A stretch of DNA of 64,000 bases. Source: a virus (lineage: Duplodnaviria; Caudoviricetes). This document shows, piece after piece, positions 5,254-6,170 of the stretch. The stretch lies in the IMG/VR virus record IMGVR_UViG_3300025018_000093; one strand, given 5' to 3'. Under the pieces are notes generated by a model. That model had not been told where the DNA came from. It saw only the letters and a program-made list of their open reading frames with translations, and did not search any database. The translations under genes were made by a program, and so were the position numbers. Positions within the stretch are counted from its first letter, which is position 1. Each line of letters opens with the position of its first letter.

Positions 5254-5464
5254 GTGGACGGCCGGGTACGGTATGAATTCCACGTCGAATAGGCGTATCG
5301 CGGCCAGGTTGTATAACAGCACGGATGCAGTCGAGCTGGACATCAAGTCGGTAAGACCTTCGGTGACCACTGTCACAGAGTCGGCCGGAGGTTTCGCTCA
5401 GGTAACGTTCACGGGTTCGGCCAAGACGTTCTTGGTTCAGTTTAGAGCGCTTGACGGAACATCG
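5254..5464 (+). repeat. Copy of 802-1012 (fibre C-terminal domain), fused in frame to the 5093 ORF
   Basis: 210/211 identical. The translation WTAGYGMNSTSNRRIAARL... is in the native frame of the donor gene. Confidence 0.95.
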
Positions 5465-5968
5465 ACCACGGGGCAGCGCCCCCCAGCGAAGAGGACGGCG
5501 ACATGCAGACGACGATCGGAACGACGACCACCTACCACGGCACCGAGCACCGCTACCTGGAGGGCTACCAGGTCCGCATCATCGCGGTGATCAAGGGCGC
5601 CGCCGCGCCGGATTACGACGCCGATGCCGAGGGCGCCTACCTGACCGACGAGGAAGACCTCGGCCGCGCCGGCGGTGTGACCGCCGACGACCGCGTCGAG
5701 GTCCAGCCCTGGATCGAGAAGGAGGGGCGCTTCAGCTTCGTCTCGAGCGACCCCCGCGCCATCGACCTCGCCTGCTTCGCCCACCTGGCCCGCTGAACCC
5801 TTCCGCGGCGGGCCTCCGCGCGATGCAGGGGCTCGTCGCCTCACAACCCGAGGAGACGACCATGACCGAGACCATCCAGACCCAGCTCGACGCGCTCCGG
5901 GACCTTCGGCTCCCCGACCTCCAGGCGCGCTTCGCCGAGATCGTCGGCGAGGAGACGCGCTGCCCGAA
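5465..5968 (+). other. Foreign high-GC DNA fragment (about 70% GC)
   Basis: Abrupt shift to nearly all G/C third codon positions; two sampled 60-bp lines gave 67% and 75% GC. Carries its own SD-led ORFs. Confidence 0.85.
5503..5796 (+). CDS. Hypothetical protein (97 aa) inside the foreign fragment
   Basis: ATG preceded by GAGGA, with high-GC codon usage. Confidence 0.75.
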
Positions 5969-6170
5969 CATCGTTGCCTCAATTGATGACATCCCTGGGG
6001 ATATCAGTGGAGGTGGCGGGACTGGTGGGGTCCTCGTGGTGAATGGGGAAGTCTACAACTTCAACGAGTGGGTGACTGAGATCACCCTCAGTCGTTGCCC
6101 GCAGGGGAAGATCGTAGCTTTGAATTACGCTGACGAGATCAAGGCGTTGAAAGCCATGACTCGCGTGTGA
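5862..6170 (+). CDS. Chimeric ORF: DUF2924-like N-terminus + copied internal segment of the 3554 ORF + DUF5659-like C-terminus
   Basis: ATG after GAGGAG. MTETIQTQLDALRDLRLPDLQARFAEIVGEETRCPN resembles DUF2924 N-termini and reads in frame through both downstream junctions. Confidence 0.6.
   Translation: MTETIQTQLDALRDLRLPDLQARFAEIVGEETRCPNIVASIDDIPGDISGGGGTGGVLVVNGEVYNFNEWVTEITLSRCPQGKIVALNYADEIKALKAMTRV
5969..6089 (+). repeat. Exact copy of 3889-4009
   Basis: 121/121 identical. Confidence 0.95.

Follow-up and report, generated by a model that had tools for sequence, protein, structure and literature searches.

A three-template insertion in a small gene of an uncultivated jumbo phage, with a probable origin in template-switch repair

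In the genome of an uncultivated tailed phage (Caudoviricetes), a small DUF5659-like gene was found to be interrupted by three abutting segments of DNA, of which the outer two are copies of the phage's own sequences and the middle one derives from a P2-like prophage element. We consider it probable that the insertion was made by one repair event with multiple template switches (MMBIR/FoSTeS-like). The analysis was carried out on a stretch of 64,000 nt (IMG/VR record IMGVR_UViG_3300025018_000093), referred to here as the window, in which every gene lies on the + strand. The phage genome measures 261,416 bp, as given by the contig carrying its gp3554 protein, and the phage is therefore a jumbo phage.

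Structure of the insertion and its presence in several samples

Sequence comparison within the window bore out the two self-copies that had been described beforehand: 5254-5464 is identical to 802-1012 at 210 of 211 positions and 5969-6089 to 3889-4009 at all 121, both in direct orientation (Table 1). The sole mismatch (G at 824, A at 5276) replaces Asp with Asn in copy 1, and the similarity breaks off abruptly at all four ends of the copies. The 504-bp foreign piece between them, first put at about 70% GC, has a measured GC content of 70.8%, compared with 55.9% for the window; the next-highest 504-bp segment anywhere in the window reaches at most 63.5%. At the target, the net change amounts to a gain of 835 bp and a loss of 12 bp.

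Table 1 Window coordinates of the insertion, its phage sources, the interrupted gene and the chimeric open reading frames
Feature	Position	Strand	Remark
Source of copy 1	802..1012	+	inside TNF/C1q-like C-terminal tail-fibre domain
Source of copy 2	3889..4009	+	residues 113-152 of 238-aa gp3554 (3554-4270)
Target N-half (DUF5659-like gene)	5081..5254	+	likely start ATG 5093; G 5254 common to copy 1
Chimeric ORF, 169 aa	5081..5590	+	target N-half, 70 aa of fibre fragment and 42-aa out-of-frame tail
Copy 1 (R1')	5254..5464	+	copy of 802-1012; fibre frame
Foreign fragment	5465..5968	+	from P2-like prophage element; homology to native locus 5463-5970
Captured intact 97-aa gene	5503..5796	+	own Shine-Dalgarno sequence
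First 35 codons of prophage DUF2924-RHH gene	5862..5968	+	start of 102-aa chimera
Chimeric ORF, 102 aa	5862-6170	+	35 aa of DUF2924, 40 aa of gp3554 and target C-half
Copy 2 (R2')	5969..6089	+	copy of 3889-4009; gp3554 frame
Target C-half	6090..6170	+	26 codons and stop; 81% identical to P0002 C-terminus

The segments meet the target and one another at four junctions (J1, 5253/5254; J2, 5464/5465; J3, 5968/5969; J4, 6089/6090). Translation across them showed the target N-half running into the fibre frame at J1 (..PQLQ/WTAGYGM.., the slash marking the junction), the DUF2924-like start running into the gp3554 frame at J3 (..RCPN/IVASIDD..) and the gp3554 frame running into the target C-half at J4 (..TEITL/SRCPQGK..), so that three junctions keep native reading frames as originally stated. 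The 1-in-27 chance attached to this pattern is arithmetically correct, but it was computed post hoc and on one event. A promoter and terminator scan returned one weak promoter-like site and no terminator.

Overlaps at the junctions are very short: 1 nt at J1 (G at 5254) and, because homology to the native prophage locus extends slightly beyond both ends of the foreign fragment, 2 nt at each of its joins (CG at J2, CA at J3). In simulations the chance overlap had a mean of 0.69 nt per junction, with P(sum >=5 over three junctions) = 0.087, J4 not being scored as this needs the ancestral target. The overlaps of 1-2 nt are not significantly above chance, and so cannot discriminate between template switching and the joining of nearly blunt ends.

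The runs carrying the stretch are aquifer and groundwater metagenomes, and Logan contigs and unitigs of four runs were aligned to positions 4700-6700 of the window. In the probable source run, J1 lies on a unitig spanning 4700-5306 (42.6x), J2 and J3 lie together on one unitig spanning 5435-5998 (51.8x) and J4 lies on a unitig from 6060 onward (45.6x); coverage across the junctions thus matches that of the phage flanks (approximately 43-46x) and shows no drop. The unitigs of the repeats, at 96x for the part shared by R1 and R1' and 95x for R2 and R2', show that each sequence is present twice in the genome. The one 'joint' listed for this run, 1012..3889, is the native path and not an alternative allele. 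Run X2 yielded a 377-bp contig over 5116-5492 (J1, all of R1' and J2) and a 154-bp contig over 5936-6089 (J3), and run X4 yielded contigs across J1 and J4; run X3, with the phage at about 3x and without junction-crossing contigs, is uninformative either way. Contig L040 (JGI, another sample, 2983 bp) corresponds to window 4135-7117 and hence covers the whole insert, L036 (ENA, a further sample) spans 4114-5543, and L038 and L039 run from within R1' through the foreign piece and R2' and then for 6 kb more. Besides the source sample, four or more samples of this aquifer yielded the junctions, as did three assemblers (Logan, MEGAHIT/ENA and JGI). The insert was identical in all samples, without variation, and no other allele was observed in the population sampled.

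The insertion is real and not an artefact: as the junctions recur across samples and assemblies, they do not represent a random library or assembler chimera. The preliminary description had left room for an assembly or amplification chimera, and such a reading could appeal to the short-read nature of the metagenome, to exact repeats of 188 and 121 bp that are hard to phase and to the differing path of one contig (L043). It is refuted, however, because k-mers of all four novel junctions reach the full depth of the phage in the source run and because the junctions recur in independent samples and assemblies; we regard it as vanishingly improbable.

L043 (a 590-bp contig of ENA ERZ27293376) corresponds to window 4978-5464 followed by 1013-1115, and the 138-aa protein encoded on it (P0123) joins the target N-half, R1' with the A variant of the insert and the native fibre end. 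This contig is either a low-depth wrong turn of the assembler or a real recombinant between the repeats, such as a tandem duplication arising from unequal crossover. Short-read graphs permit no phasing across the 188-bp exact repeat; the order of the window is the one that leaves the fibre domain and gp3554 intact, and more crossings are in its favour. A separate observation concerns L040, which departs from the window only by five substitutions, clustered in a 15-nt stretch of gp4363 (4910-4924) and all outside the insert. The cluster resembles either the tract of a short conversion or a mutation of several nucleotides at once.

The interrupted gene and the three donors

A word-based search with the target N-half among 5.8 billion proteins returned only two candidates, of which one is an intact homologue (P0002, 85 aa, 74% identical to the N-half); no near-identical uninterrupted allele was on record in this search. 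In a related phage, represented by a contig of 18.6 kb, the gene for P0002 immediately follows a gp4363 homologue of 70% identity, and in a second relative (L045, an 85-kb contig) gp3554 is followed by genes for 231 aa and 165 aa and then by an 88-aa DUF5659-like gene. The proposed search of related genomes for an uninterrupted allele thus gave two uninterrupted homologues in syntenic context. Relatives were also sought by distant blastn against the phages collection, by a gp6181 scan of viral_contigs and by a gp4363 scan of metagenome_contigs, all of which found nothing, and the uninterrupted allele was not found as an exact gapped pattern in metagenome_contigs.

Comparison with the two homologues defined what the target had lost. 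The N-half ends in ..LQ, with a CAG codon finishing at 5254, and the C-half opens with SR.. at 6090. G 5254 is the third base of a codon at a Gln/Lys position that is kept in both uninterrupted homologues; it is therefore target sequence, and the N-half and the C-half rejoin in frame. Protein and DNA alignments placed four residues (HAFF in one relative, RAYF in the other) between the positions at which the two halves end in the window, and exactly 12 nt (4 codons) were therefore removed by the event. The preliminary description was right in holding that some target sequence was gone, but its statement that the halves do not rejoin in frame was wrong, because G 5254 had been counted as part of the insert.

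The N-half matched the Pfam DUF5659 profile over positions 2-45 (E 0.032, 14.5 bits) and P0002 matched the full profile (E 7e-4, 19.8 bits), both below the gathering threshold of 23.6 bits. Judging from these profile scores, 'DUF5659-like', as the gene was originally called, is the most that the label can claim. PHROGs gave no match for any window ORF near the insertion site. As no other allele was seen, the interrupted gene is evidently dispensable.

Both phage sources are intact and native in place, 1.1-4.45 kb upstream of the target, and were therefore copied, not cut. The source of copy 1 belongs to the C-terminal receptor-binding domain of the tail fibre (approximately 674-1054, the last 127 residues). 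This TNF/C1q-like module is receptor-binding and widely exchanged; a HMMER scan gave at least 1497 representative proteins with the contiguous fibre domain, always C-terminal and with very varied lengths. The domain was modelled with AlphaFold (pLDDT 92.7) as a nine-strand jelly roll, with the carbohydrate-binding domain (CBD) of the short tail fibre of cyanophage A-1(L) as best match and TNF-like lectins and C1q as further ones. Copy 1 corresponds to model residues 50-119, beginning within strand 4 and ending before strand 9, and so takes up approximately 4.5 of the nine strands. The gp3554 segment is native at 3889-4009, since full-length homologues (89, 81 and 57-59% identity) contain it, and it is not a domain.

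Elsewhere in the window, two adjacent genes have a common 218-nt module (7629-7846 and 7964-8181, 77% identity). The relative L033 has a single gene matching both (60% and 84% aa), which indicates a tandem duplication in the lineage of the present phage. An in-frame array with a 12-nt period (GAGAGGGTYCC-like units) occupies 41050-41221 within ORF 40468-41631, and one ORF in the region 22676-25991 matches Pfam Volactin (E 3.8e-71), with intein/LAGLIDADG domains likewise found in this region.

The foreign fragment consists of a short leader, a complete 97-aa ORF, an intergenic spacer and the beginning of a DUF2924-RHH gene, whose full-length homologue in one donor locus (L001) matches DUF2924 (E 2.7e-7) and RHH_1. 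Relatives of the 97-aa protein form 471 clusters (90% identity) at E<=1e-20, mostly on short contigs, so that the donor element is very abundant in metagenomes. The gene was located in 32 genome loci (L001-L032), the majority in bins of Myxococcota (up to 88-89% aa) and others in bins of further phyla. In the donor loci, it is preceded by P2 gpI-type baseplate, Ig-like fibre and Amidase_2 endolysin genes, and the DUF2924 gene is followed by varied, unrelated chromosomal genes and two tyrosine integrases; a serine recombinase, sought at this position, was not found. This arrangement places the conserved gene pair at the right end of a P2-like element, either a prophage or tailocin-like. Runs X2 and X3 contain a native donor locus at approximately 10x, with several SNPs and extending past both ends of the fragment, and ENA contigs L041 and L042 match window 5463-5970 (508 bp) at 96.9 and 97.8% identity. 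DNA of the donor element is approximately 86-89% identical between bins of different phyla, which points either to a mobile element with a broad host range or to noise in the binning. The 97-aa protein was modelled as a small beta-barrel (pLDDT 87), for which PDB and AFDB clusters gave no convincing or informative fold match. A toxin-antitoxin reading of the captured gene was considered and dropped, no MazF- or CcdB-like match having been found.

Origin of the insertion

The proposed route would start from a break or stalled fork inside the DUF5659-like gene, yielding a 3' end that would be extended by low-processivity copy-choice synthesis with four template changes. The first template, in the tail-fibre domain of the phage 4.45 kb upstream, would yield 211 nt, the second, the P2-like prophage element in the infected cell, 504 nt, and the third, in the phage gp3554 gene 2.1 kb upstream, 121 nt. 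The final switch would lead back to the target, 12 nt past the departure point, and each join would use an overlap of 1-2 nt. Several genes for homing-type nucleases in the window (LAGLIDADG intein, T5orf172/MUG113 and TnsA-like) are candidates for the source of such breaks and could have supplied them.

The copies carry 1 and 0 differences in 332 bp, and the event was therefore recent. Template switching fits better than random capture of fragments, because the segments are local, co-oriented and in genome order: the naive chance that both self-templates would lie within 4.5 kb of the target is (9/261)^2, or approximately 0.001, and positions 802, 3889 and 6090 are collinear with the genome. 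A recent templated insertion or template-switching event, as proposed in the preliminary description, is thus the best reading of nearby, co-oriented and collinear self-templates with near-unmutated copies. Against switching confined to a single fork stands the location of one template on another replicon, which is atypical. Single-stranded DNA folding at the eight breakpoints gave one modest hairpin (GGGTGA..TCACCC, z -1.7), which is not significant after eight tests. This hairpin (3990-4009 and 6070-6089) has a 6-bp stem and ends 2 nt short of the position where template 3 was abandoned; it may have favoured the switch, although it is statistically weak.

Several other origins were weighed against template-switch repair. 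In end-joining capture, free double-stranded DNA, in the form of two pieces of degraded sibling phage genomes and one of degraded prophage or host DNA, would have been ligated in tandem by a ligase or NHEJ-like activity. Host DNA fragments are plentiful in lytic infection, and overlaps of 0-2 nt that do not exceed chance are compatible with such ligation, but it does not predict that both phage fragments originate no more than 4.5 kb away from the target in a genome of 261 kb, nor the common orientation of the three fragments (1/8) or their genome order. The scan proposed earlier, for RT, primase-polymerase (PrimPol), Ku and LigD genes and for further patchworks, was run on the 64-kb window (of 261 kb) and found none, nor any other exact self-copies; with neither Ku nor LigD in the window, we consider end-joining capture unlikely. 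Copying from RNA would involve a reverse transcriptase (of a host retron, a defence system or a group II intron) jumping between phage and prophage mRNAs, with the cDNA recombining via the target flanks. All segments are indeed sense and within transcription units; with all its genes on the + strand, the region 802-6170 could be transcribed late as a single polycistronic mRNA, and the foreign piece, like a polycistronic message, includes an intergenic region. The window has no RT gene, though, and the insertion shows no poly-A or other RT hallmark; since switching between DNA templates accounts equally well for orientation and locality, an RNA-templated origin appears very improbable to us.

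Successive addition of the three segments at a fragile site, by illegitimate recombination or gene conversion, could explain why the lone G/A difference is confined to copy 1, which could then be slightly older. It would, however, need three independent hits at one spot, all recent (0-1 differences) and all co-oriented, with nothing of the target left between the abutting segments. The searches gave no intermediate allele, and separate events of this kind are highly improbable. A programmed or recurrent diversification process, which would create chimeric proteins by frame-preserving templated insertion, had also been raised at the outset. All three scorable junctions are in frame (naive chance 1/27) and one template is a receptor-binding domain of a tail fibre, yet the copied pieces are partial domains (half a fibre domain and 40 internal gp3554 residues), the fibre gene is unchanged, the insert is invariant across samples, the patchwork is a single instance in 64 kb and no dedicated enzyme was found in the window. 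Domain-shuffled proteins as a means of diversification are therefore not supported, and we hold this explanation to be exceedingly improbable.

Known classes of inserted element were rejected on the following grounds. For a transposon or insertion sequence, the insert lacks inverted repeats and a transposase ORF, as the preliminary description had it, and the target shows a 12-nt loss and not a duplication. For a diversity-generating retroelement, the window contains no RT, and there is 1 difference in 211 nt. For an intron, intein or homing-endonuclease insertion, Rfam was empty over 4300-7200, and Pfam and PHROGs gave no nuclease or intein in the insert ORFs.

Consequences and comparison with known systems

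The copied pieces are fragments of folds, and the 169-aa and 102-aa ORFs are therefore probably inert by-products of the insertion, neutral for the phage. They are chimeras, which calls for caution in annotation: neither should be named after its parts. A random error would not be expected to give three in-frame joins or to take up a whole gene, and these features may reflect selection filtering of the event that survived. We speculate that such a filter may, for example, have preserved translation as far as the native stop at 6170 or favoured the 97-aa gene. In a stronger version, the 97-aa gene, for example by countering prophage exclusion or defence, would itself have been the object of selection, captured via template switching from perhaps a transcript-borne template, with the in-frame joins kept for translation; we think this very unlikely. 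Were it true, and were patchworks to recur in the genome or in relatives, it would constitute a general route by which jumbo phages import prophage genes, possibly RT- or recombinase-assisted.

Both the class of mechanism and its outcome, the gain of a foreign gene and mosaicism, are already known. What is uncommon here is a three-template event in an uncultivated jumbo phage for which every donor is still identifiable, along with the exact breakpoints and the bases lost from the target. On the favoured reading, a single event can both duplicate phage sequence and import a complete prophage gene. The insertion also provides a physical link to a host, in that the phage must have replicated in a cell with the P2-like element, whose relatives are mostly in Myxococcota bins and of which a native copy is present in the same aquifer. 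Caution on the host is nevertheless warranted, because the donor element crosses phyla and there is a 15-point gap in GC content.

Phage mosaicism is usually attributed to rare illegitimate recombination, and to our knowledge the events behind it are almost never caught fresh. Under the Hendrix model, morons and other foreign genes are said to be gained by such illegitimate recombination. The present insertion resembles moron acquisition in bringing in a complete prophage gene with deviant GC content and its own ribosome-binding site. It differs in lying inside a gene, in being flanked by two self-copies and in having no own promoter or terminator detected.

Broken T4 genomes are rejoined by a UvsX-dependent process at minihomologies of 3-13 nt (Wu et al. 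2021, PMC8262927). Common to the portion of that study considered here and to our case are a large lytic phage with its own recombination and replication machinery, tiny homologies and a non-essential gene. The T4 events set out in that portion, unlike the present insertion, are simple deletions with no multi-segment templated insertion and no foreign DNA.

The closest correspondence is with the MMBIR/FoSTeS model, which describes complex rearrangements with junction microhomology of 2-5 bp (Hastings, Ira and Lupski 2009, PMC2621351). The present case departs from it in concerning a phage genome and not a cellular chromosome, in having one template from a prophage replicon, in showing overlaps of 1-2 nt (at or below 2-5 bp and not above chance) and in the absence of low-copy repeats. 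In agreement with the model, three discontiguous segments from three loci were copied into one place with their sources retained, the target suffered a small deletion, the overlaps are very short and two of the templates are nearby on the same genome.
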